64,000 nucleotides of DNA from Antedon mediterranea (Eukaryota; Animalia; Echinodermata), in assembly GCF_964355755.1 (NCBI RefSeq), contig NC_092674.1, positions 2,790,001-2,854,000 of the forward strand, given 5' to 3'. Below are positions 26,254 through 64,000 of the stretch, one piece after another. The position numbers and the translations under genes are program-made. Position 1 is the first letter of the stretch, and the number at the start of each line of letters is the position of its first letter. The notes below the pieces were generated by a model that searched no databases, had not been told where the DNA came from, and saw nothing but the letters and a program-made list of their open reading frames with translations.

Positions 26254-26562
26254 AGTGAGTGGCCGAGCGGTTAAGACAGTGGAACCGTAATCACGTAGCC
26301 ATAACATCGGCAGGGGTTTGAGGCTCACTCACTCCATGGTTCTGGTGGTAGAACGAGTCTTCTCGGATAAGGACTATAAACCGTAGGTCCAGTGTACACA
26401 ACTTGCTCGTGTGCACTTTAAAGAACCTAGTACATCTTTCGAGATGAGTAGGGGGTTACCCCGGTGTAGTAGTACATCACAGCCACTGATCACCAACTGG
26501 GCCCTCTGGGAGATCAGTCTTTGACTGAAGAGGTCACCCAGTATAAAGATAAAAAAAACAAA
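26254..26562 (+). mobile_element. Full-length tRNA-headed SINE with Deu/Nin-like core
   Basis: A box TGGCCGAGCGG, B-box-like GGTTTGAGGC, core CGGATAAGGACTATAAACCGTAGGTCC..TAAAGAACC..GAGTAGGGGGTTACCCCGGTG, A-rich tail, flanked by the direct repeat CAAAGAGTG. Confidence 0.85.
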
Positions 26563-26994: not shown

Positions 26995-27139
26995 TTATAT
27001 CACCCCGATAAGGAATTATATCACCCCGATAGAGAATTATATCACCCTGATGGGGAGTTATCACCCCGATAGGTAATTATATAACCCCGATAGGGAATTA
27101 TATCACCCCAATAGGGAATTATATCACCCCAATAGGGAA
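26995..27139. repeat. 21-bp minisatellite (TTATATCACCCCRATAGGGAA x7) overlapping the stop codon of the IL1R-like gene
   Basis: Units start at 26995, 27016, 27037, 27058, 27077, 27098 and 27119. The last unit encodes FPIGVI* on the minus strand. Confidence 0.9.
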
Positions 27140-30100
27140 TTTCTGTTGGAATAACTCCTCACTTTGACAGGAATTTTCTTCCGAGAATGAGTAACTGCTT
27201 GCACTCTCCTTGGACACGGATCTCATAGGGCAGAGATATGTTTGAGAGTTGGTTGAAGTTGATCTATCAATGTATTTACTATTCTTATGATAGTCATGAG
27301 GACGAGCGTGTCGAGGAGTACGTCTGGTAGGCATTCTCACTTCTAGTTTCTTCCAGAAGGTTTTATTAGTGCCACTGGGTGACCACTTCAAGACCTCTCC
27401 AGCTTTCATAAGATGCTGGAGGGCTTCCTGTCTGTTCAGACTATCTGGTGAAATTGGTCTGAACATGACTGGGATGATGTTCTTCTTCAGCCTGTGTTTT
27501 TCTAAAGCTTTATTGAATTCTATTGAGCAATATTGCCGTTTAATGTAATCTGGAGACAGCACTAAAATACAACATCTGCTACAGTTCACTGCATTCACCG
27601 AAACTGTACAATGATCTGAAAATAAAGTTCATTCAAGTGCTATAATAATTGTATGTGGGAATCCATGGTACATATTACGTCAAAGGTCAAATGTTCCTGA
27701 GATCGTTACTTCCTGTATGATCTAAAACAATTAAGAAATACTTTACCTTCTCCAGGCAGAAAATTGATCTCATCAATACACACATTGTACGACAATTCTT
27801 CCACAAGAAACGGACGCAAGGTACAAATGACAAAATCCCGGTCTTCTTCGGAGTTACTATATGAAATAAACGCATCAAATTTGCTGCTTTCTACAAAATA
27901 TAAAAACGTTTAGCATAAATGTATTGGTCAGTCCAGCTTGATGATCCCAATAAGTTAGAATTTTAGATTATAAAACCTACGCATTAATAATATTAGCCTT
28001 GACGAATAAATAGTGTTTTCCGAAATCTTGGACATTTTCGGTTTGATTTTATAGCTTTTTTGATTTGTATCTCCATAGAATTGATACCAATATATCATGA
28101 TACCTCTGATACCAACAACATTGACATTTTCCATGAGTAATGTGCTTTTAGTTTTATTTTATAAAACAATATATATTTTAAACTACTCTAGACCTAGCCA
28201 AAATCCAATTCACCTAATAAGCTAGTTACAATTTATACCATACACTCACTCACCATCAGAAGAACATTTTTCTAATTTTCTCCTCTTAATGAACAGGTGT
28301 ATATCTGTTTTGAAAATCATGTAAATTAACGTGAACACAAACAAGATTACTAAGGTTGAACCCAAAGCAAGAGCAACCACTGTGCTCCCTTCATTTATAA
28401 CTTGTGGCAAAGGCTCCGTTTTATCTTCTGAAATAAAACAAGACGACTTATCAATAAATAAAAAGGTTTTGGCTGCTTCAGTTTAGTACAGTCCATCAAT
28501 TATTAGATTAGATAGCCTATTATCAATAATTTGTACAAAGGTCAAATTTCAAGAATTTCTTTGACAAGAAATTCAAAACACACTAAACCCTCCAATTTAT
28601 TAAAGATGTATTGTCCCCCAAAACATGAAAAATGAAGAATTATTAAATCAGGCTTTGAATAGGTTATTTAGTAGTTTTAATAGAGTAAATAGTCAAACAA
28701 ATCTTATATAATGACAAAATAAATGGTTAAATTCAACTTTAAATTACAGTTTCTTCAGATAAATTTTTTTTTCTCGATCCAATTTTAGGTCAAAGTGGAT
28801 TATGTGACATTAAAATGGCATATTCAACCAAAACAAAAATTGATTGAGACACTGACCAATGATCTTGGTTAAGTTGAGAACATGAACTAGACTTTCTTCT
28901 CTTATCAACTGTACATAGTACTGCCCAAATGCATCATTGGTTATGTTGTATATGTGGAGTGATGTTCTAATGTCGGTTTTATCTCTGAAAAAACACATTA
29001 TATAAATAATAGATAATAATCTGGTTTCAAAACAAATTCATCTACTGTAGATATATTTATTTTATTTTTACTTATTTATTCAACTTCTCACTGAGATGTA
29101 CAGTACATCCAAAGACACAGACATAACACACATCTAGTGAAGGATGGGACCAACAGGTGGTAAACACCTCTAAAACAGTCCAGCCCCAATTGCACAATGA
29201 GCCCAGTTATGATCAGTGGATGTGTGTGTGTGTATTAGTACACCGGGGTAACATCCTACTTGTTTCAAAAGATGTACCATGTTCTTTAAAGTGCACACGA
29301 GCTAGATGTGTACACTGCACCTTTATAGTCCTTATCCTAGAAGACTCGTTCTACCCCAGAACCATGGAGTGATTGAGCCTCAAACCCTTGCCAAAAAAAT
29401 GCACCCCTCTTTATACACAATGATGGATGCACCCCTGCTGCAACTAAAGTACTACAAAAAGTTTCAACTTAAAGTTTTAATACCATCAATCAAACTACAG
29501 TGCTAGTAATGTAATCAGTCTAAACATACCCTTCTGGGCACTCTTCTTTCTTTACAACAAAAGTGGTAAAATTGGTAAATGGAACAGTAATATCTTCATA
29601 ACCAAAAGTATAGTATTGTACCACTGGCGAGTCGAGACTATACCAAATGATGGTAGGGCAAAGTTCACTACGGCCAATGTAAAAGTGACATTCAAATGTG
29701 ACGTTGTCCCCAATTCTTGCAGATTTGTCAAGGCAGTCTTTTTCTTGCAACAATTCGATAGTTCTTGTTTGTTTTGCTGTTAATAAAGTTTAAATAAAAA
29801 TAATATAAAATCATTTTTAGTGAAATGTTTTCATAATCTGAAGAGTACTTGCCACAAGTTAATCAGCGTGGTGCAAATTAGTATTTTATTAAGGTTTCTG
29901 GATCATTTTCTTGTTGTGATTGGGATAGATGGTTGGTAAAATTAAATTGTAACAAGCACTTTTGAAATTTGTGAAACAGAATAATAGTGAATCGATTATA
30001 AATCCCTTTTACTCTTACACTGCCAAGCTAAAAAACACATTTCATATCATAAACTTTTACGCTGTTACGGCCACTAAATACGCATTTTAGCGCCCCCGGT

Positions 30101-33045
30101 ATCACCCGGGTTACACAATTCCGGATCAACTCTGCAAATTTTTACTAGCATTGTAAAAATGGTATTTTGACTCACGTTTCACCCAAAGTTTTTGTGTAAA
30201 TTCCAATGTTTTGGTATCATTGCTAATAACACATTTGTAAGTACCCTCCATTCTCTCAGCAACTTCGCTAATACGTACTTCCTGATTGTCCTGCGCAAGT
30301 TGAATATTGCCTAATATAATGTCTATGGAATTGTTCCAATTGGGAAACTTCTGGCCCTCGAAATACCAAGTGATGTTGTCATAGTTACCAGCACAGCAAA
30401 GAATAGATACCAAATTTTCCTCTGTTTTAACTTCAAGGTTCGATGGGTCTGGATCAGTGAACTGCAAATCGGTTCCTTCATGAAATATAAATTCATTATT
30501 TTGAATTAAATTATTATTATGTAGTATTCATCACGCTAAAAATATTAGGGGCACACTGCCCCTTTGCTCTCATATAGTACATTTCATATAGGTCTACAGC
30601 CCCATTGGTGGTCGGAGGAGGTTTGAGAGGGTGGGGTGCAGCAGCCACTACGAGACATGAGGCTACCTGTTTTACTGAAAAATACTATGGACCAAGATGA
30701 CAGGAAAAAGGCCACGCCAGAGAGGGCACAATATTTGTAATAGTTTCCAGCAAAAGGTAAACCGTTTCTGACAGGGTTTGGGATAACATTATAGATGGCT
30801 AGTTTTCATTGATTCAAATGTAGGATCCCTTTAGCAATGGGCTTAGCATCCAGTATAGCTAAAATTGTGCGATAAATCATGACACAGGACGGGCCAGGGA
30901 ATAAAACTACTAATTTCACCCCGTCATTTCCCACGCTTGTGCTACCATCCAAATCCTTGGAAATATACCCCATAAATGGTGCACCTCCCCATATATTCCC
31001 ACACTTGTGCTACCAGATGCACAAAAATAATACCTCCTAAATGCTGCACCTCCCTGTAAGGAAATATTTAAGAGTGATCCCCACGAGATCTTTGTTTGTT
31101 TGTTTCTTTTATCTTTATACTGGATGACCTCTTCAGTCAAAGACTGATCTCCCAGAGGGCCCAGTTGGTGATCAGTGGCTGTGATGTACTAATACACCGG
31201 GGTAACCCCCTACTCGTCTCGAAAGATGTACTAGGTTCTTTAAAGTGCACACGAGCAAGTTGTGTACACTGGACCTACGGTTTATAGTCCTTATCCGAGA
31301 AGACTCGTTCTACCACCAGAACCAACCCATGGAGTGAGTGAGCCTCGAACCCCTGCCGATGTTATGGGTACGTGATTACGGTTCCACTGTCTTAACCGCT
31401 CGGCCACTCACCCACCGTCTACAGTTACAAATTATAGCTCTTCATCATTTTTATTTTCAAGGATAAAAAATATTTCTTAACATGTATTATTTAAAAAACT
31501 GATACTATTCTACTGTTCTGGTTTTTACACTGGGTTTAATATTTCCTTTTCTTAGTTAATAAAATAATAATTTCAAGGTGAAACGCTTTCTTTTCTAAAA
31601 AAAGACTTGTTTCTCGTTGAGTCATAAAACAGATGTAATCTCAAGTATGTTTTTACCAATATTATAGCAAGATTTCCCATGACGGGTCTCACTCAAATTC
31701 ATTTCTATTTGTGCTTATTAAAATTTCATTTGCTAAATACTGTATGCATTCAAATAAACACCCTGCTTTCAATAAACACCTCACCCAAATAAAATAACCC
31801 CTCCCCCACCCATAGAATATAATTTTGAATAAATGCGCCCCACATGCATATATTCACAATATTGTATTACAACACATTTCTATATGTACAGTAGTAGAAT
31901 TCATTGATTGACATGATCTACAATTTACCAATCATTTTGATACAATTTTTACTGTATTTTATCACTTCTCGATATTAACTGTATGTTGTATTTGTTCAAT
32001 TCAATCTATGTGGCATTTGGATAAAGGCCTAGCCTCATTTTAAATACTGTATCAATTATGTAAATATTGTATATATTTTTCATCATAAAGCAATATAAAA
32101 AATAAGAACATGGGGTGTGGTTTTGCTGTAATTCATCAAAGTCACACATTTTTTTGTCACAAAGTTTGATAGTGTAAACAGAGCTTTGTGTATCTGCTTT
32201 TTCATCGTCATTGTTTTCAATTCTCATTTTTTCTATGGGGTAGTATGTATTTGATTATAATATGTTACCATACTACACCCTTATTAGAATAAATATGATA
32301 GTACATCTTTTTTCAATGTGCATTTATCATTATTTGTATACCATTGTATTATTTGAAAATAATCATTTGAAAAAAGTTGAATAAATTGGGTTATCCCTCA
32401 CTAAAGAGATGCATGCCTATAGGCGTGTACTTAAATCAAACATCTGATATAACAACAAGGATTACAATATATTAATAACAAACTGAATTCTTAAGTACAA
32501 AACTGATCCTTAAAGTGCATTATAAAACAAACAATGACAAGTAAATGAATTATGAAGATTGCGTTAGGAGACATATTGTAATTAGAATACTTGTAAGCGA
32601 CTGTATTTATACGCGATCAGATAGATGAGAATTATTGATAACATAAATAACGATTACGAACAGGATGTTGATCACTAAAACCTTTATCTTAAATTATTCT
32701 AGTAGTAAATTATACAATAACTTAATTATTAATAATATTAACGATCTCAGAAGTTGTAAAACATCTTCGTCTAGCAGATTAGAAAAAAGATAAAATGGCA
32801 TTTTTCATCGGTTTTGTACAGAAATTCTAATTCTTCTGTAAGCTAGAAAATCTAGAATTGCAAACAGAGATTTTAAAATTTTTTAAACATTGGTTACATA
32901 AGAGGATAAACACAAAGGCAGTCAAAATTTTAAAATCAATTTTGAAAAAAAAAAACTCACCAATGATTGGATAATCATCACAGTCGTACGATGACGAGAA
33001 TGCTGGGATGGCAAAACACAAAACTAAAAGAACTGTTGGCAACAT
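27119..33045 (-). CDS. IL-1 receptor-like Ig-TIR receptor (signal peptide, 2 Ig domains, TM, TIR), about 524 aa
   Basis: Exons: 32961-33045 (signal peptide MLPTVLLVLCFAIPAFS), 30176-30475 (Ig1: ILCC..ITWY..EGTYKC), 29530-29776 and 28857-28984 (Ig2 split by a phase-2 intron), 28254-28427 (TM VVALALGSTLVILFVFTLIYMIF followed by KTDIHLF), 27747-27890 (TIR box1 FDAFISYS, BB-loop FLPGE), 27119-27615 (ILVLSPDY, YCSIEF, FWKKL; TAA). Joined length is 1575 nt, in frame. A probable 5' UTR exon has its donor at about 36432. Confidence 0.9.
29185..29395 (-). mobile_element. Deu/Nin-core-like SINE, partial and diverged
   Basis: Reverse-complement match to 26254-26562. Confidence 0.75.
31092..31412 (-). 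mobile_element. Full-length Deu/Nin-core-like SINE
   Basis: Near-identical reverse complement of 26254-26562, which is why two near-identical 63-aa ORFs appear in the ORF track. Confidence 0.85.
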
Positions 33046-38803: not shown

Positions 38804-41800
38804 TTAAATATCAGTGAAATTAGGCCATTCTCCTACTAGACTCTCCATTTGTAGTTGCTCTTCAAAATCATCCTCTAATTTTTGCAACTGTTGTTTGAAT
38901 TCATTTTCTTTACCAAGCTTTGTTTTCTGAAAAATAACAATTCGGTCTAAATTTATATTTAGGCCTATATTTCAGATTCATTTTATATCGTCATAATGTT
39001 AAACAACTTAATACAAAACATATGAAATTCATTTTCCCAGAGACATTTAAAATTACACCAACAAACTAACAAATAATTTTTAAGTTTAAAATATACAAAA
39101 TACAAATATGCCTGTTTAAAAATTAAATTATATTTTTGATAATGCAAGTTATCATTATCATTACAAATAGTTTATGATTAAACAATAGGCTACTAAACTA
39201 ACCTGATTTGTTTCCAGTTCTTTTCCTGTTGCCTCTTTCTCCTTCAGTAACTGGATATCATTTAATATCCTTAAAAGTCTTTTGGACTCTTTTTGATATT
39301 CCAATGCATTTATTTGCCTTACAACTTGCTTTCCACTTTGTGTCCTTCTGAAATAGGTCGGTGATTTCCATTCATCAGGTATGGATGTGGCAGAAGGTGG
39401 GGAAAGATGTGATGTTGTCCTTGGTTTCACATAATATGCCACTGGTCCTGACCAGCTAAATCCAATGTAAAAAACAACTTCTTCCCGACTTTTAATTGTC
39501 GTTATCATAGTACTTGAAGAGGGAATAGTTATGGGTATGGATTCATATGTATACTGGTGTTTATAATTAATGGTATTGTTACCTGATAAGATGCCACTAG
39601 CCATAAATAGATTCTCTTTGACATAGCCACTCTGCCAGACTTGATCTGCCTGCTTTTCCAATTTACTTTGATTTGACGATATTTTGCTGTGGTGAACCAA
39701 TGCTTTCATACCTTTTCCATTTCCAAGGAAAAAGTGAACGCATGGCCGACTTCTCAAATGACCTCGATAAGGTCTGTGATGTGACAAATGTCCATCTTCT
39801 TGTTTATCCCGTTTCTGGGATGCATTCCAACGTTCCTTAATTTCCTTTAGAGACTTTTTCATCAAGCTGTTGTCATACTCCTGTGCCGGCTGACCTCGTG
39901 GCCAAAGCAACATGAGAAGAAATAATGGTGGATATAAGCTAAATCTCTGTTCGTCACAGTCACGTCTATCAAGTTCCTTAGCAAGATCGATCATTTCTCT
40001 GGTAGACGGCAAATCATACCGATATTTACCCTTTACGTTTACTGTCGACAGAGCTAAGTTTGTGAGCATAATGATTTTTAAGTCAAAGGCAGAGTAAGGC
40101 TTGTTTTCCAACAGCAACTTCCGAATTTCAAGCAGATTTTCAACTTTTTCTTCTTTAACTAACTCAAACACGTTTCTGATACTGACGCCACCAAGCTTGC
40201 GTGCTTTTAGGCGACGCACTTCATCTGCTGTTTCCGCTGATACAGACAATTTATTGTCGTCAAAAGAACCAAAATGTATTTCCCACGAAACAAAACATTT
40301 AGGAAGTCTAGACTTTATATCTTCAAATTCAGATTGACAAAAGTGTGTGAAGTTTGACCACTCTTTTTGAATTGTAATGTAGTTGATCAGTTTATCAATA
40401 GCCTCGTGTACATTTCTCATCAAACCTTTCATTTTCTTGTGATGTTCAGCCCACTTATCTAACACATCCGGTTTGTAGTGTTTGTCAACCAAGTATCTTT
40501 GTAGAATGCTTCGACCATTAGGAGATTGTTTGAATACATCAAGGCAAGCAAGAACATCTAACATATTAAATGTAATATTGAGCTCACCAGAGAAACTTGA
40601 CATATTTGTTTTATCATCAATTTCTTGTGATTTATGGAAACTGTCTATGCCATTAAAAGCCAATGTCAGCAACCTGCAACTATCATCTATGCTCAGTCCC
40701 TCATGTTTTAATACGTATTTACGATAAAATGATCGAATCAGTTCCTGCTTGTAAATTTGTCCTTTTGTGTCCCAATCAAAACAGTTGTTTTTTCTCATAT
40801 CAATAGCCTTATCTATAAACTCTAGGGCTTTAGTATGATCTTCCATTACCAGGTTGTAGTATCTTGCGATTTGTTGAGCAATCATTGGCTCTTTGAGAGT
40901 ATTAAATCCCTGAATAAGTACCTCACATGCTTTTTCTTTGCCGACATCTTTTATTGCCAATATAAGTGCCGAAAACAATTGTTTTGTAGAAGGACTCGGT
41001 CCTGTCTGATTCCTCTTGATAAGAAGATCTTGTGTTCGTGCAGCAAGATACTCTCGGCTATATGCAACAGCTGACAATAACTCGGACTCTAAATAAGTTG
41101 TCACTAATGAGCTCAGAGATTGCAAATTGGAGTGTTTTATGATAGCATCGGCTACTATTGGGTGAACTATTTTTAATCCTTGTACACTTCCTATGTCATA
41201 TGTCAACTGTACTCATCAGAACACGACAGCCTTCTGGCATAGTGTGTTCCCATGAACATCTTCGTTTCTTTTTTGCAGAAAAAGCAAACCCAATTAATTC
41301 GTCACAGCAAGAGACAGGAATTGCAGAATCTGGTTCAAATTTGCCGAATAACGAACAGAATTTTACCAATTCAAGTTCACGGGGACGGTGTTCTTCGAGA
41401 TCATCAATAATCCTTCCGACTGTACTTTGCACATAGTCAGATTTAAAATCTTCTTTCATTACCATAAAAGCAAGAAGGCGATCCGGCTTAAAATCTTCAT
41501 CACTTAGCATTTTGGTTTCAAGCTGATCATGCTTTGTCTGAAACCATTGTTTCTCTCTCTTATTCAATGATTGCCCTAACAATAAAGCATTGCAATCCTG
41601 AAGTAACGATTTGTCTTCTTTAATATCTCTTTGCGACATATATCTTCTACAACTGAGAATAACAAACGTACACCCTACAATGTGTCTTGTACTGTACTCT
41701 AATGAAATAACCATAGCTGTCAAGTCATTGTAAGGAAGGTTGTCACTAGCAATAACAAGAGGCAAACGTTCTTTTTGCAAATTGCAATCGCGTTCACCAT

Positions 41801-44800
41801 AGTTACACATTTCTAATATTTGATCTTTTGTCTGCTCAGTAATTTTGTTTAGAAGGACACATCTGTACTTCTTTCGAAACTCCCATAAGACATGTTTTAC
41901 AATCGTGCTTCCGCCAGCACCAGGTAGGTGAAACAGATGAAACCAACGAAATATTGCTTGGTTAAGCACTTTTTTCTGATGTGTTTGGTTAATCATGTTA
42001 TCAATTGCGTCTACTATTCTATTCTTGCCATCACGTTCACACACATGGTCATAGCCCATATCAGTGAACTTAAAATTCCAAAAGGAGAGTTTTTCTCCTC
42101 TGTAAAACTCTAACTCTGTATCTTTGCAGAAAGTATAGAAGTCTGGATTCTCTTCATTCATATCTGTGTTGTCACATTCATTATATGCAACAACAATAAA
42201 GTCCGTCCATTTCGAATCTTTCCATAATTGACATCCTTTGCCATTAACTGTTGGAAGAATGTAACTTGATTTTACATTTACACCTTGCATTTGTAAAATT
42301 ATATCATTCAAGCTTTTCAATGGAAGAACAGCTACTCTATCTTGTATTTCCTCAGGATTGCAGCATTTTTCGACGAGCTTACACCATTCCTTATAAACTC
42401 GGGAACTTTCGCAAATAAAAACCATATTTCTAATCCCAAAGTTTGTGTAAAACTTACGATATGCTTCACTCAGTACTTCAATGTTGTTAGGCAGCAAGAT
42501 AAAAATAACAAGACCTGTATCCTGTTGAATAACACTAATATTAGAAAAGAATTCAATAGCCTTATCCATATATTGGCTGCGTTCCTTAATCCACGTCATT
42601 CTGTCCATGGCATCGTCATCTTCCGTTCCTGTACGCCCGTTACAAAAGATCCATGCTGGAACTTCTCCGTAATTGATGTGAGATGGTGAAGTTACTGTGG
42701 CTAAATCATTTATGTCATAAAGATTTACCTTCTGTTTCAATCTCATTACCTTACATATGCCATTTTTATTTGAATTTTCATCAAAATCAAAGACAGCCTT
42801 CCATTTTACTTTACTAATAAACTCAAAAGTTTCATCAATGTTTTCAATGTCTGTACCAGGTACATTAACTACCAAGATTGCATTATAAACCAAATCAAAT
42901 GTTTTTTTCGATTGTGAGTCTCCAAAAAGCAATTCCCGAACCTTGTATTCGACTTCAGAAGCACATGATACATCGTGATCTGCCTTGGAACGTTTCTTCT
43001 TCCTTTTCTTGCTTGATTTACTTGCTTTACATTTTGGAATATTTTCCACTGCACCAATACTAGGCTGCAGGTCTTGTTTCGTTGATTTAATTAATGTATC
43101 AGTTTTAACAGAATCTGATGATGTAAGGTTTGCAGCTGACTTCTCAAGAATGTTTATCTGTTTGCTTCCTTTATCCTCATTTATCAGTCATATGGCCGAG
43201 CGGTTAAGGCAGGGGCGCCGTTTATCGTACCTAAAGAGCCAACAACAACATCGGCAAGGGTTCGAGGCCGACTCGCTCCTAGTTCTGGTGGTGGAACAAG
43301 TCTTCTCGGATAAGGACTATAAACCGTAGGTCCAGTGTACACAGTTATAACCTGTGTGTACTTTAAAGAACCCAGTTCATTATTCGAAAAAGAGTAGGGG
43401 GTTACCCCGGTGAACTGGTTCACACAATAGCGTCTGTATCAGGGGGATTACCACCTATCTGATAGGACAGTGATTAATTCACTATTGGTAATCCTTGGCC
43501 ACAGTGCCTAAAGACATAAAATAAAATAAAAAATTACACTTTGGAATGTGTATATCCATGCTCTTCTTCACTTGTTTAGGGTTTGTTTTAATATTTTCTA
43601 CTACTTTAGTTTTCTTTAATCCCGTTAAAGGTTCCAGTTTTTCTGAATCAGTTCTATATGTGAGTGTGACAGAATCGTCGGAACTTGTTATCCGTGTGTC
43701 TGAACTCTCCTTAACACATTTAGAACTTACTCCTGTAATTCCAATATCATCCACTCCTTCCTGTTCGATATTTTGAAACGTATGTGAAGATGAGGAAACT
43801 TCAGTTACACCAGGTTCAGGTTGCATTTCTCCGTCATTGAATCCCGTTCTTTCAGATTTCATTGATTTCGTTGCAGCAGTTGCTGAATTGATTTCAGCAT
43901 GTGTATTCACTTCTATAGGCTTTTTAATTTTTGCTGTTGGAGATTTTACATTTGTGTGAAAATCATACAAAATGACATCTGATTCTGAACTTTTCTCTAA
44001 ATATTTAGGCTTTACTTCAAAAGAAGCTGCGTCTAAAAATGTACTGCTTTCTCTGATTTCAGTATCAATGGACATTTTCTGCATATGCAAAACCAGCATA
44101 AGTGGACCAACTGGAAGATTGAAATCTTCTATAAAGTGCTCTTCTCGATATTGCAAAAATTTGAAACCATTCATATCCAAATGTGTAAATTTGTCTGCAT
44201 GTATAGGAGATAACCCTGCTCGTAATAATAATTTAGACACTGTTGTTGCACGACAGTCATCAGTTATAGGTTCCCAATTATCCTTTTGTCCTTCCAACAC
44301 CTCTTTTCTTTTCTTTTCTAGACTGTATTGAATCATGCGCAAGTCAGTCTTCTTAATTTCAAACTCTTTGAATATCTTGTCATGCTTATCTATAAGCAGA
44401 TTCTTTCCAATAAATTCCTGCTCATAAACCTGATTTGCAAGTTCTTTCAAACGAAGGTCCACTGAAAGCCATTCCCTCACCTCATTCCTATCCCACTCAG
44501 TTATTATCTTCTGGCTTTGGCCTTTAAACAAAAATAAAAGTTCACATACTATCTAAAAGTAATTGTTTAATGTTATATATAATGCCAGACTGAGGATACT
44601 ATACTTACCAACTTCTTTTAGTTTTGATAAAACTGCTGAGTACATGTTCTCGTCAATACGCGATGACAAAGTTTTGCAGAAGTGTTCAACTTCACTTTTT
44701 TCGACAAAGATCCTGGCTAGCTCTTGAATGAATTTTCCATTTTTGTGATTTTCCATCAGATTTTCTAAGGCATACGTATCATGAACTGCCACAATAATCT

Positions 44801-45374
44801 CTAACGATCCGGATGCTATACTTCGTAAGGCGAGACCCTTTCTTCGCATCAGAGCTTCAAGTTCAGACAGCTTCTCTAAAAATTCCTGATTAGTTTCTTC
44901 CCTGCATTTACCATCCAAGTTGTCTTCATAATATAAACCAAGGAGTAAAATCGCTCTCTGGACCGATTTCTGTTTACTCTCTCCTTGAACACTTTCATGG
45001 TTACCACGTTGTTCCTGTGTGTTTTCCTCGCTTCTTTTATGGATGTTGACTGTAATATCTATTTGTAACAAAATGAATATGGACACAATACAAAATAAGA
45101 GGTGCCATTTCGTTATATAGATTTGGTATGAAAATAAAACAAATTTAATTAATAATATATAATTTAATAGTTTATAACCCCAAATAAAAGCCAGTAGAAA
45201 TGCAATATGATTGGTCCTACATCTACTGTAAAAAATAATGTTACCAAAACAATTGTTCAAAACAATGTTGTTGTGTCCATCACATTGTATCTTTTCTTCT
45301 GATATGGTAAATTGTTTACCATCCTTAGTAACCACACGTTCTTCAGGTGAACTGCTGATATCTTGATCTGACAT
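38804..45374 (-). pseudogene. SAMD9-like STAND NTPase, copy B, disrupted (SINE insertion plus frameshift)
   Basis: Same 4-exon layout as copy A: 45245-45374, 44609-45058, 39203-44521, 38804-38926. Exon 3 is interrupted by an antisense SINE (about 43187-43533) that supplies a stop at 43482. A 2-bp loss at about 41200 shifts the frame (VDI* versus VNINELG in copy A). All SAMD9 motifs are otherwise retained (KWKAVFDFD, WIFCNGR, HLPGAGGST, FYIGFSWSGPVAY). Confidence 0.82.
43187..43533 (+). mobile_element. Deu/Nin-core-like SINE variant inserted in the coding exon of SAMD9-like copy B
   Basis: TGGCCGAGCGGTTAAG head, GGTTCGAGGCC B box, shared core, TAAAATAAAATAAAAAA tail. It is absent from copy A exon 3. 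A 3'-end fragment of the same family lies at about 53940-54010. Confidence 0.85.
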
Positions 45375-47379: not shown

Positions 47380-47759
47380 GTATCTTGAAAATAGTCTTTT
47401 TTCCAAACCAATAATTAGTAAAAACTAACCTTGACAAATAATAACGATCTATCATCAAACAGACTGACCTCTAGAGGGCCTATTCTGTTTAATGACAGGG
47501 TCATACACGTGACTGAGTTGGTGGGTGCCCTCGTCTCTGTTGATGATTTGGTTTCCTCGTCTGCGGATCCAGATGACCCTGTCATTAAACAGAATAGGCC
47601 CTCTAGAGGTCAGTCTGTTTGATGATAGATCGTCATTATTTCTGAAGAAGCTGTCCGATCAGGACAGCGAAACTGTCAAGGTTAGTTTTTACTAATTATA
47701 TTGGTTTGGAAAAAAGAATATTTTCAAGATACTACAAACCAGATGAACATTTTCAATCA
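47380..47759 (+). mobile_element. Penelope-like element 3' fragment with 5' inverted copy
   Basis: Flanked by the 12-bp direct repeat TAGTAGATCTAT (47368-47379, 47760-47771). Segment 47380-47503 is the inverted copy of 47572-47731. Contains a hammerhead core. Confidence 0.65.
47636..47684 (+). ncRNA. Minimal type-I hammerhead ribozyme motif (Penelope-type)
   Basis: CUGAAGA (47642-47648), stem II GCUGUCC/GGACAGC with GAUCA loop, GAAAC, then UGUC as the cleavage triplet context. Stems I and III are very short. Confidence 0.6.
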
Positions 47760-48760: not shown

Positions 48761-51700
48761 CTAGATCTCTTCCATATCTATCTGCTTTTTGAAATCATCT
48801 TCTAATTTTTTCATTTGCTGTTTGAAATCATGTTCTCTTCTCAGCTTTGCTTCCTGAAAATGAGAAAAAGATATCAAAATAGTTTTTCCAATTAGGGCCT
48901 ATGTTCTAAATGAAGAGGCCAAATCTTTGTAAAGAAATGCTACTTATTTGCTACCGTATTCAAAATGAAATCTAGAAGCATGTTGGTAACTGGAAACTAA
49001 TAACGATACAGTTATAAATCACATAAAGATGCTCATTAATAACAAACCTGATTTTGTTCCAGTTTTTTTCCTTGTCTAACCTTCATCTTAAGTGCTTCAA
49101 TTTCAATTACTTTCTTGTTAAGATCCTTGCGTTTCTTATGATATTCATCTACACTTATTTGGTGTACAACTTGCTTCTCTGTTCTTGAAAAAGCAGAGGG
49201 TCTCCATTCATCATGAGTCTGTCTGTATGTCATAGGCTCTGGTAAATGTGATGCTGCCTTTGGTTTTACGTAATATGCCACTGGTCCTCCCCAGCTAAAG
49301 CCAATGTAAAACACAACTTCTTCCCGACTTGCAAATGTTATGTTACTTGATGAAGCAAGTGGAAATTGAATGGATTCATCCATATAATCGTGTTTAAATA
49401 TTATGTTGTTAGTTTCTGATAAGGTACCTTCAACCTTTAACAAATTCTCTTTGACGTAAGCACTATGCCAGACTTGATCCTTTTCCAATCTAATTTGGGA
49501 TGATGATATTTTGGTTTGGTGTACCAGTGCTCTAAGACCCTTTCCATTTCCAAGGAAAAAGTGAACCAATGGCCTTTTACGAATTCGCTGACTTTTCAAA
49601 TGAGGTCCGTAAACTAGATGTCCATCTTCTTGTTTATCCTGTCTCAGTAACAAATTCCAGCGTCGTCGGGTTTCAAGTAGAGATTTCTTCATCAGACTGT
49701 TATCATATTCGTCTGCAGGTTGACCTCGTGGCCAAAGCAGCATAAGCAGATATACTGGTGCAAATAAAGTAAAGCTTCCTTCTTGTCGGTCACATTGATA
49801 AAATTCCTTAGCAAGGTCTATCATTTCTGTGACAGACGGTAAACTGTACTGACTTTTCTTCACATTCGTTATTGTTGATAACGCTAAGTTGGTCTGTATT
49901 ATTATTTTCAAATCGAATGCAGAGTAAGGGTTATTTTCTAACAGTAACTTTCTAATCTCTAACAATTTCTCTGTTTCCATCTCGAACAGCTTTCTGCCAC
50001 TGGTGCCAATAAGCTTTCGCGCTTTTAAACGACGTAGGTCATTTGCTGTTTCTACTGATACCTTGATTTCCTTATCAAGATCAATACAACCAAAATGTGT
50101 GTCCCATGAGCATAAGTAAGAAGCAATTAGCCTTTGTAGCTTGAAAGATTCATCAAGTTTTGTAAAGTTAGACCACTCCTTTTGGTATGTTAAATGATTG
50201 TTCATTGTATCAATAGCCTTGTGAACATTTCTCATCAAACCTTTCATTTTCATATGATGTTCAGCCCATTTGGCTAACACATCTGGTTTATAATCCTTGT
50301 CAACCAAGTAACGCTGTAAAATATTACGACCAGCAGGAGTTTGTTTAAATACATCAAGGCAGGCAAGAACATCTAACATCTTGAATGTAATATCAACTTC
50401 GCCAGAAAAAGTTGACATGCTTTTGTTATCATCAATTTCTTGAGATTTATGAAAAGTATCTATGCCATTAAAAGCTAGTTGCAAAAGTTTACAACTATCA
50501 TCTATGCCAAGTAACTCATTTTTTACAACATATTTGTTATAGAACGCTTTTATCAGTTCGTTTTTATAGATCTGTCCCTTTGTATCCAAAAGAAAAGAGT
50601 TGTTCCCTCTCATGCCAATAGCTATCTCTATATACTCTAACGCTTTGGAGTGATCTTCTATTATCATACTGTAGTACCTTGCAACTTGTTGAGCAATCAT
50701 GGGATCTTGTAGGATATGGAATCCTTCAATAAGCACATAACATGCATATTCCTTGTCAACATCTTTTATTGCCAATATAAGAGCAGAAAAGGGTTGCTTT
50801 ACAAAGGAAAGAAACCCTGTTTGATTTCTCTTTATAAGGAGATCATGTGTTTGTGCAGCAAGATATTTTCGACTATATGATTTTGCAGTGAGTAATTTGG
50901 ACTTCAAAAAATGTGTCACTAAGGAACTCAGAGATACTGAGTTTGCATCTACACGCAGGATAAAATCAGCTACAATTGGATGAACAATCTTTAATCCTTG
51001 TACAGCTCCCAGCTCATTTATGTTAACTGTACTCATCAGAAGAGAACAGCCGTCTGATATATTGTGTTCCCATGGACATTCTCGTCCTTTCTTTACAGAA
51101 AAGGCAAACCCAATGAACTCATCACAGCATGGGATCGGAATAGCGGAATCACGTTCAAACTTGCTGAATAATGAACAAAATCTGACTAATTCAAATTCTT
51201 GTGGATGCTGTTCTTTAAGATCATCAAGAACTCTGCCGACTGTATGCTCTACGTACTCAGATTGAAAGTCTTCCTTCATCACCATAAAAGCAAGAAGACG
51301 ATCCGGCTTAAAATCTTTGTCATCATCACTTTTCATTCTTCTTTCAAGCTGATCATGCTTTGCCTGAAACCATTTTTTTTCTTTGTCACTCAGTGAGTGC
51401 TCTAAAAAGAATGCTTTCTCTTTGTTACCATATTTATCTTCTTTGATATCACCTTTTGACATATATCTTTTACAATTCAAAATTATACACGTACGTCCTG
51501 GAATGTGTTTGGTACTGTATTCTAATGAAACAACCATGGCTGTCAAATCATCATAGAAAATATTATCGCTAACAATAACAAGAGGTAAACAAACTCTTTT
51601 ACCATTGTAATCTCGTTCTCCATAGTTCCACATGTCTAATATTTGTGCTTCGGTCTGATCAGTAATCTTATTTAAAAGAATACATCTGTATCTTTGCCGA

Positions 51701-54700
51701 AACTCCCATAGAATATGCTTGACAACAGTACTTCCACCAGCTCCAGGTTGGTGAAACAAGTGAAACCAATGAAAAACTGCTTGGCCAAGTGTTTTGACCG
51801 GCTGAGTTGGTTGTTTAATTTCGTTCTCAATTGCCTCTACCATGCTATATTTGACATCTCGTTGGCATACATGATCGAATTTGAAATTCCAAAATGAGAG
51901 TTTTTCCCCTCTATAAAAATTCAACTCGGTATCTTTACAGAATGTTTCGAAGTCCGGATGTTCTTTGTTCATATCTGTGTTGTCACATTCGTTGTATGCA
52001 ATCACCGATAAATCAACCCATTTAGATTTGTCTTTTTCCAACAGGTTACATCTTTTCCCATTAACTGTTGGCAACATGTAATCCGATTTCAAATTTACAC
52101 CTTGCATTCGTAAGATTATGTCATTGAAAATGTGGAATGGAACAACGACTAATCTTTCTTCTAGCTTTTCTTGATGACAGTACCGTCTCACTTGTTTACA
52201 CCATTGATCGAAAACCTGTCTCTGTTCACATATAAAGATGATACGATGGATGCCAAAGTCGGTATAGAACTTACGGAATGCTTCACTCAATACTTCAATG
52301 TTGTTAGGCAACAAGATAAAAATTACAAGACCTGAATCCTGTCGAATAATACAAGTATTTGAAAAGAATTCAACAGCCTTATCCATAGCTTGACTGCGTT
52401 TCTCGATCCAGGACATTCTGTCCATTTGTGAAACATCAATATCTGATCGCCCATTACAAAATACCCATGTTGGAACTTCTGCATAATTTATTTCAGATGG
52501 TGAAGTTACCTTGGCTATGTCTGTTATGCCGTAAAGATTTACCTCCTGTTTTGATCTCATTGACTTGCAGATGCCACTTTTGTTCGAATTAGCATCAAAA
52601 TCAAAGACAGCCTTCCATTTTACTTTTGATATAAACTCAAAAGTTTTATCGACATTTGGAATTTTCGTACCAGGTACATCAATTACAAGGATCGCATCAT
52701 AAACTATATCAAATGTAGTTTTTAATTGTGAGTCTTCAAGCAGCAATTCCCGAATTTTGTGTTCAGCTTCAGAATAATCTGATATATCCGTTGTTGTGAC
52801 ACGTTTCTTCTTCTTTTTCTTGCTCGATTTATTTTCTTTAAACACATGTTTGTCACGTGTGTCGTATTCTTGTTTATTGCTCTGTATACTTTTTGGGACT
52901 TTCGCTATTGCACCAATACCAGTTTGCAGCTCTTTTCTATCAGTTCCAAGTTGTGTTGATTTGATTGTTTTGTCAGTTGCAACTGAATACAAAAGGGAAT
53001 TCCCTGTTTTACCACCTAATCCTGATTGAGATTCTCTCTCTTCTCCATCACCTCTATTATCACAGCCTTCAGATTGCGAGTCAATGTTTGAAGCAGAATT
53101 ATCGGCAAAGGTCGGGCGTGTGCCCAGACTTTCCTTGAAACATTTAGACTTCAACTCTGTATTTTCAATCTTCTGCTCTTCTTTTTGCTGAGTGTTTATT
53201 TCAATGTTGTTAATACTTTCTTCTGAAGTAGCATCTTCTTTTTTAATTCCTGCTGTTGGAGATTTGACGTTTGTAGAACTGTCAGAAATGGCTATATCTG
53301 TATTTGGACTTGGACCAAACTCCTCCACATCTTTCTCATTTTGAATGTTAGACTTACTGACAGCGCCATGTAATACTTTACTGCTTTCTCTAATTTCTGC
53401 ATCACTGGACAATGTCTGGGGAACTTGTGATATGTTCTGCATATGTAAAACCAACAATAGTGGTCCACTTGTCAGATTAAAATCTTCCACAAAGTGCTCT
53501 TCTCGATATTTCAAAAACTTAACACCAGTCATATCCATGTTTGCAAATTTTTCTGCGTGAATCGGAGGTAATCCTGCCTGAAATAATAATTCAGATACTC
53601 TTGTTGCACTACAGTCATTAGTTACAGTTTTCCAACTATCCTCTTTTCCTTCCGGTAAATCTTTCCTTTTCTCTTCTAGACTGTATTGAATCATGCGCAA
53701 GTCGGTCTTTTTAAGTTTAAACTCCTTGAATATCTTGTCGTGCTTATCTATAAGCAGATTCTGTCCAATATATTCCTGCTCATAAACCTGATTTGCGATT
53801 TCTTCTTTCAGACAAAGTTCCATTGAGAGCCATTCTCTCACTCGGTTCCTATCCCACTCGGATATTAACTGATGGCTTTGACCTTAAATGATAAAGTGTT
53901 AAAATGATATCTAAATTGAACACAACTATATGATGGCCATTGATTAATTTACCATTAGTAATTCTTGGCCACATGTGCCTAAATACATTTTTAAAAAATA
54001 AATAAATAAATTGAACCCAACAAATGTAAATGTATCTTTATTATATTACTGCATGAACAGCTGATAAGTTGAGTTACATGCACTTATAATACTGAACAGG
54101 AAATATAAGATAATTAATTGTCTACCCATGAAATGGCGTTGTGAACTCAATATATGAATTGAACCAAATGATCCAATTAAACGATTAAATGATTCAGTAA
54201 ATTTAAAAACAGTCATATGTACTTAAATTACCATAGAAAGCAGCATTCCTGATGAATACTTACCAACTGGTTTTAGTTTTGATAAAACTGCTGTGTACAT
54301 GTTCTCGTCAATGTTCGATGACCAACTTCTGCAAAAGCGTTCAACTTTGCTTTCTGTGGCGAAGATTTTCGCAAGCTCTAGAATAACTTTTCCACTTCTG
54401 TGATTTTCCATCAGTTTTTCTAAGGCATACGTGTCATGAACTGCCACAGTGATCTCCAACGATCCTGATCTTATACTTTGTAAATCGAGGCCCATTTTTC
54501 GCATCATAGCGTTAAGTTCAGAGATCTTCTCTAAAAGTACTTGCCTAGATTCTTCATCGCATTGACCGTCCAAATTCTCTGAGTAAAACCAAATAGTACG
54601 TAGTAACTCTTTCTCGACCGTTTTTGGTTTATGTTGCTCTTGGTTGTGTTCAGGGTTACGTTGTTTGTCCTTATTTTCAAGTTGTTTGTTTTTGTTGTTG

Positions 54701-55214
54701 ATGTTGATTGTAATATCTATTTAAATCAAAATTAAAACGGCTAAAACATAAATAAAACTGAAAACAGGCGGTGTCTCTTTTTTTATATAAAGCATTTACG
54801 TAAGCAGCAACCTGATTATTTACGACCGATGTTGCCGATGAGTGAAAGAGATTAGGTCACAAAAGTCACTGAGATGCCCACAGCATATTCAAAGTAAAGT
54901 AGAATAAGCCTTTCACTAATGTTATATATGTTTAATTTTTTTTAACCAAATGTTTTAAATATTTTTATATCGTAGGCCTACTATGAAATACACTGAAAAA
55001 AAATTCCTATTTACGAAATAAAGTGAAATGGAAATGTAAATTGTATTGATCTAACGTAAAAGGTAGCATTCTTACTACAATTGTTACAATTTTTAAAAAC
55101 ATTGTTGTTGTTTCCTTCAAGACATATCTCTAGTGGTGAAATCGTCACTTTATTACCAACTTTAGTATAATGAACCACAGGTTCGGGTGGACTGCTGCCA
55201 TCTTGATCTGACAT
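48761..55214 (-). CDS. SAMD9: SAMD9/SAMD9L-family STAND NTPase, copy A, intact, about 1839 aa, atypical architecture (RHIM-like, TRADD-N-like, 2xSAM, linker, SIR2-like, P-loop, TPR, OB, eIF2A-like tail)
   Basis: Exons 55076-55214, 54264-54716, 49048-53882, 48761-48853 join in frame (5520 nt). SAMD9-specific motifs: KWKAVFDFD, PTWVFCNGR, NECDNT, FYRGEKLSFWNF, HLFHQPGAGGST (Lys-less Walker A as in SAMD9), ILWEFRQRYRC, AFMVMKEDF, IVHPIVA, QQVARYY, DTKGQIYK, LLWP, HFFLGNGKG, FYIGFSWGGPVAY. The family call is secure; one-to-one orthology is not claimed. Confidence 0.92.
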
Positions 55215-61222: not shown

Positions 61223-63032
61223 ATGACGGCACATCGTCATAGCAACTATGTTGAAGTACTGTTTGTGTTGCTAGTTGTCTTAGTAGTAACAGTTGTTGCA
61301 GATGACGTTTGTGATAGGACAACACCAATAGGTAACTTACTAAATCTTGTTTCCCACTAGGACGCAACGCAAGGACGTTAGCGCAACGCAAGTGATTTTA
61401 CCAGTGAAGAGTGACATATTTGTTTAAACTCTTCCCTGATTTGACTAATCATGACGCAATGGATTATTTGAACTGCGCTTATGATTAGTCAACTCGCTTG
61501 CGTTGCGCTTACGTGGTGCGTTACGTCCTAGTGAGAACCTAGCTTTACTGGGATATAGCATTGATGTGACTATTGATAGTGGAAAAAATAGGATTTCCGT
61601 CGATGGGGTGGACAATGAACGAGTAGCCCTAAGTGATGGTGCCGGGACGTAATTGACCGGTGACGGGTATTGATAAGTGGCAAAAATCAACCTGACAATG
61701 AAATGGCGTCGAGTGACAAAAATGACAATAACATTCGAATTCAACAAATTGCATTATTTAATAAAATTAACCAATTTGACGACGGCGCTGATATCATGAC
61801 GATGGCTACAGCAGAACCGTACACTTATGTGTAGGTCTCACGTAATGCGACATGACGTCATTCCACACTCATAGATACAGGGCACCATGACCCCTTTCCC
61901 AGTCAGTCTTCGCTGTTGATGACGGACGGAGACAAATGAATGCAATGACGAAGAAAAATACCGTTAAGGCCAATTTACACAGACGAGCGGCAACGGTAAT
62001 AAAATATATAATCTATGTTATTCCTTATGACCATTTACACACAACGCTTAGGATAGATACATCATTATTCTACGTGGGACAAGCTACGCGGTTCCGCTTA
62101 CCGTTACCGGTCGCCTGTATAAATTGGCCTTTAGTGAAATAATACTGATTCTTATTTCTCAAGGTAACAAGTTATCATTCTACGCAACACAGAAGAGTAC
62201 ATATGTTGAAATAAGAAAGTACTTCTACATTAAATGTTGTGCACAGTGGTATGATACCATTGAATGGTACAAGGATGTGATCAGTCCATCAACCCGTATC
62301 GGTCAAAGGTCAATACCTAGTGGCTGCAATCATTGTGGTGTCCAGCACGCCTTTACGTTCAAAGAGAATGGACAAGTGTTGAAAGTGAGAGAAAGTGTTA
62401 AAGACTACCATACGGGAACTTATATTTGTGTTATAAGAAATGGGACGGTTAATGAGACTTTCAAACAAGATGTAACAGTACAACGTAAGTCATCAGAATT
62501 GGTATTTTTTTTATTCTATTCAAAAGGTTAACCCATATTTAAAATGCATTTTCATTTATGCAGAGAATATATAAATAAATAAACAAGGTCATATACATGG
62601 CTGCAGTCGCGTGCTCAAGTTAGTGTTTACCACCGACCAACCGACCGACATGAGCTGTTGTAGAGTCGCATTGCACGCGACTAAAAACAATATTGAACAG
62701 AAAAATGTAGACGTGGCGCGTGTAAATGTTCATTTAGTTCATCCTTCCTATCTTTAATTTAATCAATGTGCTTTCGTCCATTTAGCTATAAATAATTTAC
62801 AATCATCTACAAACCTGACACTCGCTAACGACGAATGTGAACTGAACGTGTATGCGAATATTGGTGACAACACAACAATTTGCTGCACGTTCTCACAGTT
62901 GACGCTGGATTTTGACATACGATGGGAAAGAACGATAAATGGTACAGAATTCATCCATCTAATCAAATCCGAAGGAACTAAAAAGGAGTTTGAATATACG
63001 ACATTTGTTGCGTATACAACTTACTTTAAATC
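61223..63032 (+). CDS. Second IL-1R-like Ig receptor paralogue, 3'-partial
   Basis: Exons: 61223-61331 (MTAHRHSNYVEVLFVLLVVLVVTVVADDVCD, signal peptide), 62164-62484 (Ig1: IKCCAQWYDTIEWY..TGTYICVIRN), 62786-63032 (first half of Ig2: ANIGDNTTICC..IRW). Phases match the 27-33 kb gene and the third exon has the same 247-nt length. TM and TIR are not seen within the window. Confidence 0.82.
62582..62687 (-). mobile_element. Short Helentron/HINE-like element
   Basis: Same termini (CACGCGACTAAAAA, AGTCGCGTG, AACAAGG) and (GACC)n core as the element at 45436-46204. Confidence 0.6.
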
Positions 63033-64000
63033 GTAAGTATTGTATAAAATATTAATATTATGTTTAAAAATACAGTAACCTCATGAAAGCGTGTACAGTA
63101 GGCCTATTACACTGACAACCAATTTTAAGCAATTGCTAATCATGTTCTCTTCACATAGGCCTACACCGTGCATAAACCACGCCTTTTAGTTTCACGCGTA
63201 TAGATTTGTGATTGTTATATTATTACCAAGCAGTTGTCAATAAAATGAACGCAGTGGTAATATGATGTACTGAATTTCAATTTGAATATGGGGTTCTTTT
63301 TGTGTAATGCCACCTGAATGCGATATAATATCCGTTATAGTGGCACAAAAATGATTTAATGACCTTCCCGACGAAATTAAAATGGCACCTTCAAAAAAAA
63401 AATTTTCTTTTAAACTTAAACAAATTCTACTCGATAAATAACTTATAATAATAAATGAACATATATATTCTGGTTTTTCTGTGCTTTCATAGTATTTTAT
63501 TATTATTAACTTGTCGTTGTCTTGTTTTGTTTCTGTTTGTTCAAACTTCAATATGATTACAACTTCTTAACTGGTTACCCGTCACAAGTTTTTTTTTGTT
63601 TTGTTATTCTTTCTGGGTTTTTTGCCTCTTAATTATTTATATTTAAATTGTTATTTTGTTTACTTTGAAAGATAAGAAATAAATGTTATGATGATGATGA
63701 TGATTGTTTGTAGGCTAGTAGTGACGTATTCATTGTGTCTACAGGTCTGCCTCCTATTGTCTTAAATAAATTATACAGTATAACCATGGAGTTATAAATT
63801 CCATGGTATAATAAAAAATAAGGGATGCAGTTAAATACAGGTGTTGTAACTTCCTTAGGAAGGAAGTAGGTAATGCATAGAGGAATATAATAATACCTCC
63901 ATGGGTGATACTCAGATTCCCACTTAGAGAACCAACGTAAGTGATTTGACCAATCACAAGTGATGGATCATTCGAATTGTCGCTTATGATTGGTCGATTC

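Follow-up and report, generated by a model that had tools for sequence, protein, structure and literature searches.

A crinoid SAMD9-family gene without the AlbA_2 tRNase: a likely nucleic-acid sensor with a probable TRADD-N domain, two SAM domains and an eIF2A-like tail

We analysed a 64,000-nt stretch of the genome of the crinoid Antedon mediterranea (contig NC_092674.1, positions 2,790,001 to 2,854,000; hereafter the window), which holds two tandem minus-strand genes of the SAMD9 family, copies A and B. Copy A is an intact four-exon gene that combines a SAMD9 core with two SAM domains and a C-terminal tail resembling eIF2A, lacks the AlbA_2 nuclease, and falls in one clade with an AlbA-less starfish protein. 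Judged from these domains and from what is reported for human SAMD9, its product is, on balance, likely to be a cytosolic nucleic-acid sensor that would signal through a probable TRADD-N domain and the two SAMs and not by cutting RNA.

The four minus-strand exons of copy A join into 5,520 nt that encode 1,839 residues with a single terminal stop. Exon 1 (55076..55214; residues 1-46) carries the start codon and most of an Asn-rich motif, and exon 2 (54264..54716; residues 47-197) carries the end of that motif, a polar spacer and the TRADD-N-like domain. Exon 3 (49048..53882) runs from the SAMs through the first helix of a hairpin in the tail, and exon 4 (48761..48853; residues 1810-1839) supplies the second helix and the stop codon. 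The introns, of 359, 381 and 194 nt, are all GT-AG with matching phases, and an in-frame stop lies 9 nt upstream of the ATG. The best database match to copy A, A. mediterranea XP_071949915.1 (P0001, 1,719 residues), is 100% identical; this NCBI model corresponds exactly to residues 121-1839, with exon 1 and half of exon 2 missing from it. Exon 1 is nevertheless supported because the Anneissia japonica ortholog (P0002, 1,732 residues) aligns to copy A from residue 1, with 45% agreement over residues 1-360 and 58% over the core; exon 1 also matches exon 1 of copy B at 53%. With an open frame, GT-AG introns and this homology, the intact four-exon reading frame of about 1839 residues put forward in the original prediction stands.

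To follow splicing, contigs from four sequencing runs were compared with the window: three DNA-like runs from one sample (X1, X2 and X4) and a run from another study (X5), chosen by species label only and taken as RNA by guess. One X5 contig of 2,152 nt skips intron 3 exactly (within one base), which gives the exon 3-4 joint and adds to the basis for exon 4. It differs from copy A at 207 positions over 1,644 nt of exon 3, whereas exon 4 and the 3' flank, about 500 nt together, show only 6 differences; its source is a divergent allele or paralog, not copy A itself. A second X5 contig lacks intron 2 of copy B and links that gene's exons 2 and 3. All three DNA-like runs contain contigs of about half depth with dense differences at 51136-52567. 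Taken together, these half-depth divergent contigs and the 87%-identical spliced X5 contig suggest that the region 49047-52567 exists either as a second, very divergent allele or in one more paralog.

The core of the protein is that of SAMD9, as first proposed. Exon-3 residues 395-1539 of copy A (about 1,150 residues) match human SAMD9 with an E value of 5.7e-88, beginning at the SIR2-like domain; SIR2-like, STAND, TPR and OB regions follow one another in the order typical of the family. The SIR2-like domain (52114..52761, minus strand, as are all features of this gene) has the same variant motifs as human SAMD9. Within the STAND P-loop region (50839..52014), the Walker A motif HQPGAGGST (51753-51727) has no lysine, as across the whole family; it shows the Gly in place of Lys and the upstream His that are a hallmark of SAMD9 proteins (Mekhedov 2017, PMC5445408). 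The TPR and helical region (49582..50799) was placed by alignment to human SAMD9 and the OB-fold domain (49261..49581) by alignment evidence, both with approximate limits. Pfam gave no match in exon 3 of copy A or in P0001.

Copy A does not have the AlbA_2 domain before SIR2 that defines the vertebrate-type, Avs9-like tRNase subgroup. A low-complexity linker of 225 residues (52762..53436), ending in a conserved lysine-rich patch, takes its place, which agrees with the earlier description of this segment. An AlbA_2 profile built from five relatives scored below 0 bits in copy A versus 60-124 bits in all five relatives left out of its construction. Over 15 proteins, 10 matched this profile at 87 bits or more (five of these being training sequences or their twin), and the five misses were copy A, its Anneissia and Acanthaster counterparts, and two short proteins from fish, whose sequences start within the STAND region. 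The linker is 225 residues in copy A versus 114 in Anneissia, aromatic residues making up 2-3% of it; between the two species, alignment is confined to the final 20 residues, the lysine-rich patch. That patch (52790-52830, residues 549-560; about 42990-43015 in copy B) is the sole linker part conserved among A, B and Anneissia, and the starfish relative does not have it. It may serve as a nuclear signal or as a substitute patch for nucleic acid.

When did the nuclease disappear? Four AlbA-less echinoderm cores, including Acanthaster XP_022110147.1, form one branch with a Shimodaira-Hasegawa-like approximate likelihood-ratio (SH-aLRT) support of 96 in a quick, midpoint-rooted tree of 14 rows with no bootstrap. 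Because these four cores share a branch, the change to the AlbA-less TRADD-N layout of SAMD9 proteins likely predates the crinoid-starfish split. Among matches from shallow searches, which covered no whole genome, no AlbA-bearing copy was found in three echinoderm species.

Contrary to the initial view, this architecture had been recorded before. SAMD9-like proteins of sea urchin and starfish with TRADD-N, SAM, STAND and TPRs, some with a coiled coil, are listed in Figure 4 source data 1 of Kaur 2021 (PMC8195603), a paper whose main text never names SAMD9. Loss of AlbA_2 in some family members is reported by Mekhedov 2017 (PMC5445408), who also describe death-fold adaptor N-termini, predict apoptosome-like signalling, and give sea urchin XP_003727489.1 in a table as SAM then SIR2 with no AlbA. 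In their accessible portions, both sources list the echinoderm layouts without discussion or tests (PMC8195603, PMC5445408); further related literature includes PMC13245274, bioRxiv 2025.05.22.655611 and PMC12698002. Within the literature covered, which lay outside most subscription journals and preprint supplements, we found nothing on an eIF2A-like tail or an Asn-rich motif in SAMD9. Neither the tail's identity and ancestry nor the N-terminal motif confined to crinoids seems to have been reported before.

The N-terminus carries the two SAM domains that had been proposed, at residues 204-266 and about 287-346 (53437..53865). A custom profile made from seven SAMs of the family matched them with E values of 2e-9 and 1.5e-5 and found two matches each in copy B and Anneissia; BLAST to the SAMs of Saccoglossus agrees, and Pfam itself gave no SAM match in the copy A protein.

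In front of the SAMs lies the TRADD-N-like domain of exon 2 (54268..54606; residues 84-196), with a Gly-Ser turn at residues 131-132. We consider it likely to be TRADD-N. A profile of the crinoid exon 2 aligns to Acanthaster P0027 at the place where Kaur and colleagues annotate TRADD-N (E 0.0015), and a small residue followed by Ser or Cys in the beta2-beta3 turn is the TRADD-N hallmark (Kaur 2021, PMC8195603). The corresponding positions, G58-S59, are nearly invariant across 10 aligned rows, with a hairpin predicted at 50-64. A search with exon 2 returned 13 matches: the gene itself, nine Anneissia proteins, and three bacterial-type repeat proteins (P0015, P0017 and P0018) that we dropped as noise. 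Weak Pfam TRADD-like_N matches occur in two of the nine Anneissia relatives, and further weak Pfam matches set the shared domain beside DED (three proteins), TIR, Roc or a propeller, the contexts given for expanded TRADD-N families (Kaur 2021, PMC8195603). Structure prediction speaks neither for nor against this. The model made from 10 sequences is a helix-hairpin-helix with two strands only, versus the RRM-like four-stranded fold of TRADD-N; neither Foldseek nor VIA-align found a TRADD chain with this partial model, the best Z of 6.0 being to unrelated helical pairs. The claim of a TRADD-N-like domain is therefore upheld as likely by sub-threshold sequence matches and the Gly-Ser turn. In Anneissia, small proteins that combine the exon-2 domain with DED, TIR, Roc or propeller domains form an expanded set (P0016-P0026), and these are candidate partners.

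The Asn-rich motif (residues 22-53) is kept in three crinoid genes (A, B and that of Anneissia), and none of the other proteins retrieved has it. It shares one half of the RHIM pattern, Gly-x-x-Asn-x-hydrophobic. The RHIM core tetrad is (I/V)-Q-(I/V/L/C)-G. The cores of the crinoid motif read ICLEG in A, IQCDG in B and VSVEG in Anneissia, and because an acidic residue stands directly before the glycine, the tetrad is not matched in any of them. No RHIM chain came up when the Protein Data Bank (PDB) was searched with the N-terminal alignment, and co-folding four Anneissia motif copies gave a score of 0.02, which speaks neither way. The suggestion that this motif is RHIM-like in the strict sense fails on the acidic residue and on the Pfam result given below.

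The tail of copy A extends 106 residues beyond the OB end motif, compared with the 6-7 residues after that motif in all three vertebrate SAMD9s with SAM and AlbA. It matches the last 57 residues of human eIF2A (chain residues 544-600) with an E value of 0.0025, and the match strengthens in relatives, to 1.1e-5 with a profile dominated by Anneissia and 3.1e-4 with Saccoglossus. In all three separate species queries eIF2A was the top or the top non-SAMD9 PDB match, so the proposed eIF2A likeness is confirmed at the level of sequence. The tail is modelled in Anneissia as a confident two-helix hairpin, with a predicted local distance difference test (pLDDT) of about 90; in copy A the first helix and turn of the hairpin are encoded at the end of exon 3 (49048..49158). 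The OB-plus-tail model has a predicted template-modelling score (pTM) of 0.34 with no Foldseek match at E 0.001; the best fold match of the hairpin alone is Caprin-2 HR1 at Z 8.8, compared with 7-7.9 for unrelated hairpins; and an atlas search with the tail found only unnamed clusters, at 0.75-0.77. A, B, Anneissia and Saccoglossus all have a lysine aligned with eIF2A K567, a numbering that assumes an 18-residue tag on PDB 8dys, and chiton does not. K567 is needed for binding of the internal ribosome entry site (IRES) of hepatitis C virus (HCV) by the eIF2A C domain (PMC6208778), and the related end of PYM binds the 40S subunit in human cells (PMC4072592).

How old is this tail? The crinoid tail profile scores 24 bits in Saccoglossus and 10 bits in chiton, in each case above 1,000 of 1,000 shuffles, and both of these proteins keep AlbA_2. 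In four other proteins the tail was weak, with its score reached by 3, 9, 24 and 25 of 1,000 shuffles. Since the tail co-occurs with an intact AlbA_2 in Saccoglossus and chiton, its gain did not accompany the loss of the nuclease, and the idea that both ends of the protein were rebuilt together in this lineage is not supported. The simplest reading of these comparisons is that the tail is an old invertebrate module that was lost in vertebrates. In two lancelet proteins the tail is a different one, and a carp-type group carries a CARD in the tail position. More generally, the slot after the OB fold is variable, holding a zinc-ribbon-like segment in lancelets and a CARD or CARD-like domain in cyprinid fish (P0004, P0005, P0012-P0014).

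Copy B (38820..45374, minus strand) has the same four-exon layout as copy A, and its core is 66% identical. It is broken by a repeat insertion in the linker (43193..43426, at very high contig depth) and by a frameshift at the end of the STAND region (41195..41199, minus strand). The frameshift, near 41,197, lies in a region matched without difference by contigs of all three DNA-like runs (X1, X2 and X4), which come from one sample. Further copies of the dispersed repeat occur at 26260-26481, 29227-29392 and 31180-31406. Reading the insertion as an intron was rejected, as use of its single good acceptor runs into stops whichever of the three frames is read. Copies A and B group together against Anneissia with support of 97 in the quick tree, and the ratio of nonsynonymous to synonymous substitution rates (dN/dS) between them is 0.23-0.40 in the SAMs and core domains, which suggests that copy B was coding until recently. 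It is probably a young pseudogene in the sequenced individual. The argument that copy B rules out a one-off artefact therefore holds for the layout, which copy B shares, and is tempered by the state of the gene, which is frameshifted and repeat-disrupted. One difference-free contig covers copy B at 39668-43171 with about half the depth of neighbouring single-copy bins, as if one haplotype only carries or matches copy B; depth here is no copy number.

We propose the following mechanism for copy A, drawing on studies of human SAMD9 and TRADD. Human SAMD9 binds double-stranded DNA without AlbA, oligomerises, and induces interferon through MAVS (PMC12015307), and the SIR2-to-OB part of the protein is a compact unit in which density for SAM and AlbA is lacking (bioRxiv 2026.02.01.703102). 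The crinoid protein keeps the SIR2-to-OB unit. Its closed SIR2-STAND-TPR-OB core would bind double-stranded nucleic acid and oligomerise as in human SAMD9, and such ligand-driven clustering could bring the SAMs and TRADD-N together and expose TRADD-N, on the pattern of TRADD and of the families in Kaur 2021. The exposed TRADD-N may then recruit a TRAF/MATH-type or death-fold partner, leading to an immune or death response. The basic C-terminal hairpin would be an older accessory module that aids RNA or 40S binding. The weakest step is the Asn-rich motif, which may add amyloid-like clustering in crinoids only.

A number of observations weigh against this proposal. Pfam TRADD-like_N matches exon 2 with an E value of only 0.019 (15.2 bits versus a cut-off of 23.7), the atlas score of exon 2 to TRADD-N is 0.77 and sub-threshold, the profile probability of the alignment to P0027 is only 17%, and a PDB sequence search with the crinoid exon-2 profile found no TRADD. 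The Asn-rich motif has no Pfam RHIM match and is absent from the starfish relative. The tail is the least constrained folded part of the protein, with 46% identity between A and B and a dN/dS of 0.76, and its starfish counterpart is recognised only weakly, 9 of 1,000 shuffles scoring as high. Moreover, fly PYM has the same module without ribosome binding (PMC4072592), so the hairpin need not bind ribosomes. The contig check of splicing succeeded for the exon 3-4 joint, in the divergent allele or paralog, and neither the exon 1-2 nor the exon 2-3 joint of copy A is among the contig matches listed. Finally, our literature search found no functional work on any echinoderm member.

Other explanations give the tail or the core a different part. 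One builds on the age of the hairpin: in the ancestral invertebrate protein it would have docked on the 40S subunit or an IRES, after which vertebrates would have lost the hairpin and kept the tRNase, echinoderms would have lost the tRNase and kept the hairpin, with TRADD-N signalling attacks on translation, and crinoids would have added a new amyloid motif that misses the RHIM pattern by one residue. We regard this scenario as rather unlikely. Also rather unlikely is that the protein is a helper or regulator paired with a nuclease-bearing SAMD9 or another effector, with its SAMs and core hetero-oligomerising and TRADD-N serving as an internal switch. Dimers of human SAMD9L form through SIR2 and OB (bioRxiv 2026.02.01.703102), which the crinoid protein retains, TRADD-N has been proposed to hold flanking domains inactive (Kaur 2021, PMC8195603), and the gene is tandemly duplicated; however, the shallow searches described above returned no AlbA-bearing partner in the three echinoderm species. 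A shade weaker again is the possibility that the protein guards the ribosome, its eIF2A-like tail acting as a docking site or integrated decoy through which viral attacks on translation are reported, and its output being amyloid and RHIM-like. The likeness to the eIF2A C domain, the lysine at the IRES-binding position in A, B, Anneissia and Saccoglossus, and the retention of the Asn-rich motif in three crinoid genes speak for this idea, but a tail that accompanies intact AlbA_2 was not gained with the rewiring, its hairpin shape is shared with Caprin-2 HR1 and unrelated hairpins, and the RHIM core is broken.

Could the protein instead kill directly? Bacterial Avs5 is a SIR2-STAND protein without AlbA_2 that is structurally similar to SAMD9 (PMC12680541), and by analogy the SIR2-like domain would be an executioner that depletes NAD+. 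We think this improbable. AlbA-less members do not differ from AlbA-bearing ones in the P-loop or in the SIR2-like motif around CNG, so nothing suggests reactivation, and the human SIR2-like domain has no reported enzyme activity (bioRxiv 2026.02.01.703102). The least credible explanation, which we consider highly improbable, is that exons 1-2 form a separate small TRADD-N gene and that the fusion is a prediction artefact. Small stand-alone TRADD-N genes are common in Anneissia, and the exon 1-2-3 joint of copy A is missing among the contig matches listed; nevertheless, a contig spans the exon 2-3 joint of copy B, NCBI models from two crinoids and a starfish contain the fusion, and the intron phases match. 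We therefore retain the sensor that would signal through TRADD-N and the SAMs.

In human disease and virology it is still open what triggers SAMD9 and SAMD9L and whether the interferon-inducing arm runs without the tRNase. A natural nuclease-less clade in crinoids and starfish offers a ready test system for the signalling arm of SAMD9. If the tail does bind ribosomes or IRES RNA, it would be the first physical link between a SAMD9-family sensor and the translation machinery; if it does not, copy A is one more catalogued echinoderm TRADD-N immune protein.

The rest of the window holds several other features. Just downstream of copy B, exons of an IL-1 receptor-like receptor with Ig and TIR domains lie on the minus strand at 27122-30527, and a possible further Ig-like exon lies on the plus strand at 62758-63033. 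A multi-exon, long coiled-coil gene, golgin-like by look, occupies about 6800-18400 on the minus strand and includes a 930-codon exon at 13928-16720. Downstream of copy A, an inverted-repeat element of about 350 bp lies at 47380-47732, and some contigs lack its middle.

How does the crinoid protein compare with known systems? It shares with human SAMD9 and SAMD9L (PDB 9zjr, 37ht and others) the order of SAM, SIR2-like domain, lysine-less P-loop, TPR/helical region and OB. Unlike them, it lacks the AlbA_2 tRNase, carries an extra TRADD-N-like domain and motif in front, and has its 106-residue tail behind the OB end. Saccoglossus XP_006825605.2 and chiton XP_064610772.1 have the same core, with a hairpin that is strong in the former and moderate in the latter, and the Saccoglossus protein also has two SAMs; in contrast to the crinoid protein, both keep AlbA_2 and have no Pfam TRADD-N match.

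The closest layouts are those of the echinoderm proteins listed in PMC8195603. Acanthaster XP_022110147.1, XP_022081709.1 and XP_022107080.1 and Strongylocentrotus XP_003727489.1 and XP_011668610.1 have TRADD-N followed by SAM, STAND and TPRs, the order seen in copy A with its probable TRADD-N. For these proteins no AlbA is listed, and several have a C-terminal coiled coil (PMC8195603). Before TRADD-N the listing gives a ubiquitin-like domain, a Death domain or nothing, where the crinoid protein has its Asn-rich motif (PMC8195603); the crinoid protein further differs in its two SAMs and its clearer eIF2A-like tail. That motif is like RHIM amyloid motifs (Kajava 2014, PMC4262963) in being a short, Asn/Gly-rich, beta-prone stretch that lies in disordered sequence and at an adaptor domain's position, and unlike them in its acidic residue just before the glycine and its want of a Pfam match. 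Compared with the eIF2A C domain and PYM1, the crinoid tail is a 55-residue module without the WD40 propeller or the Y14-Mago binding part, its likeness to PYM being taken from the literature (PMC4072592) and not from an alignment of our own.

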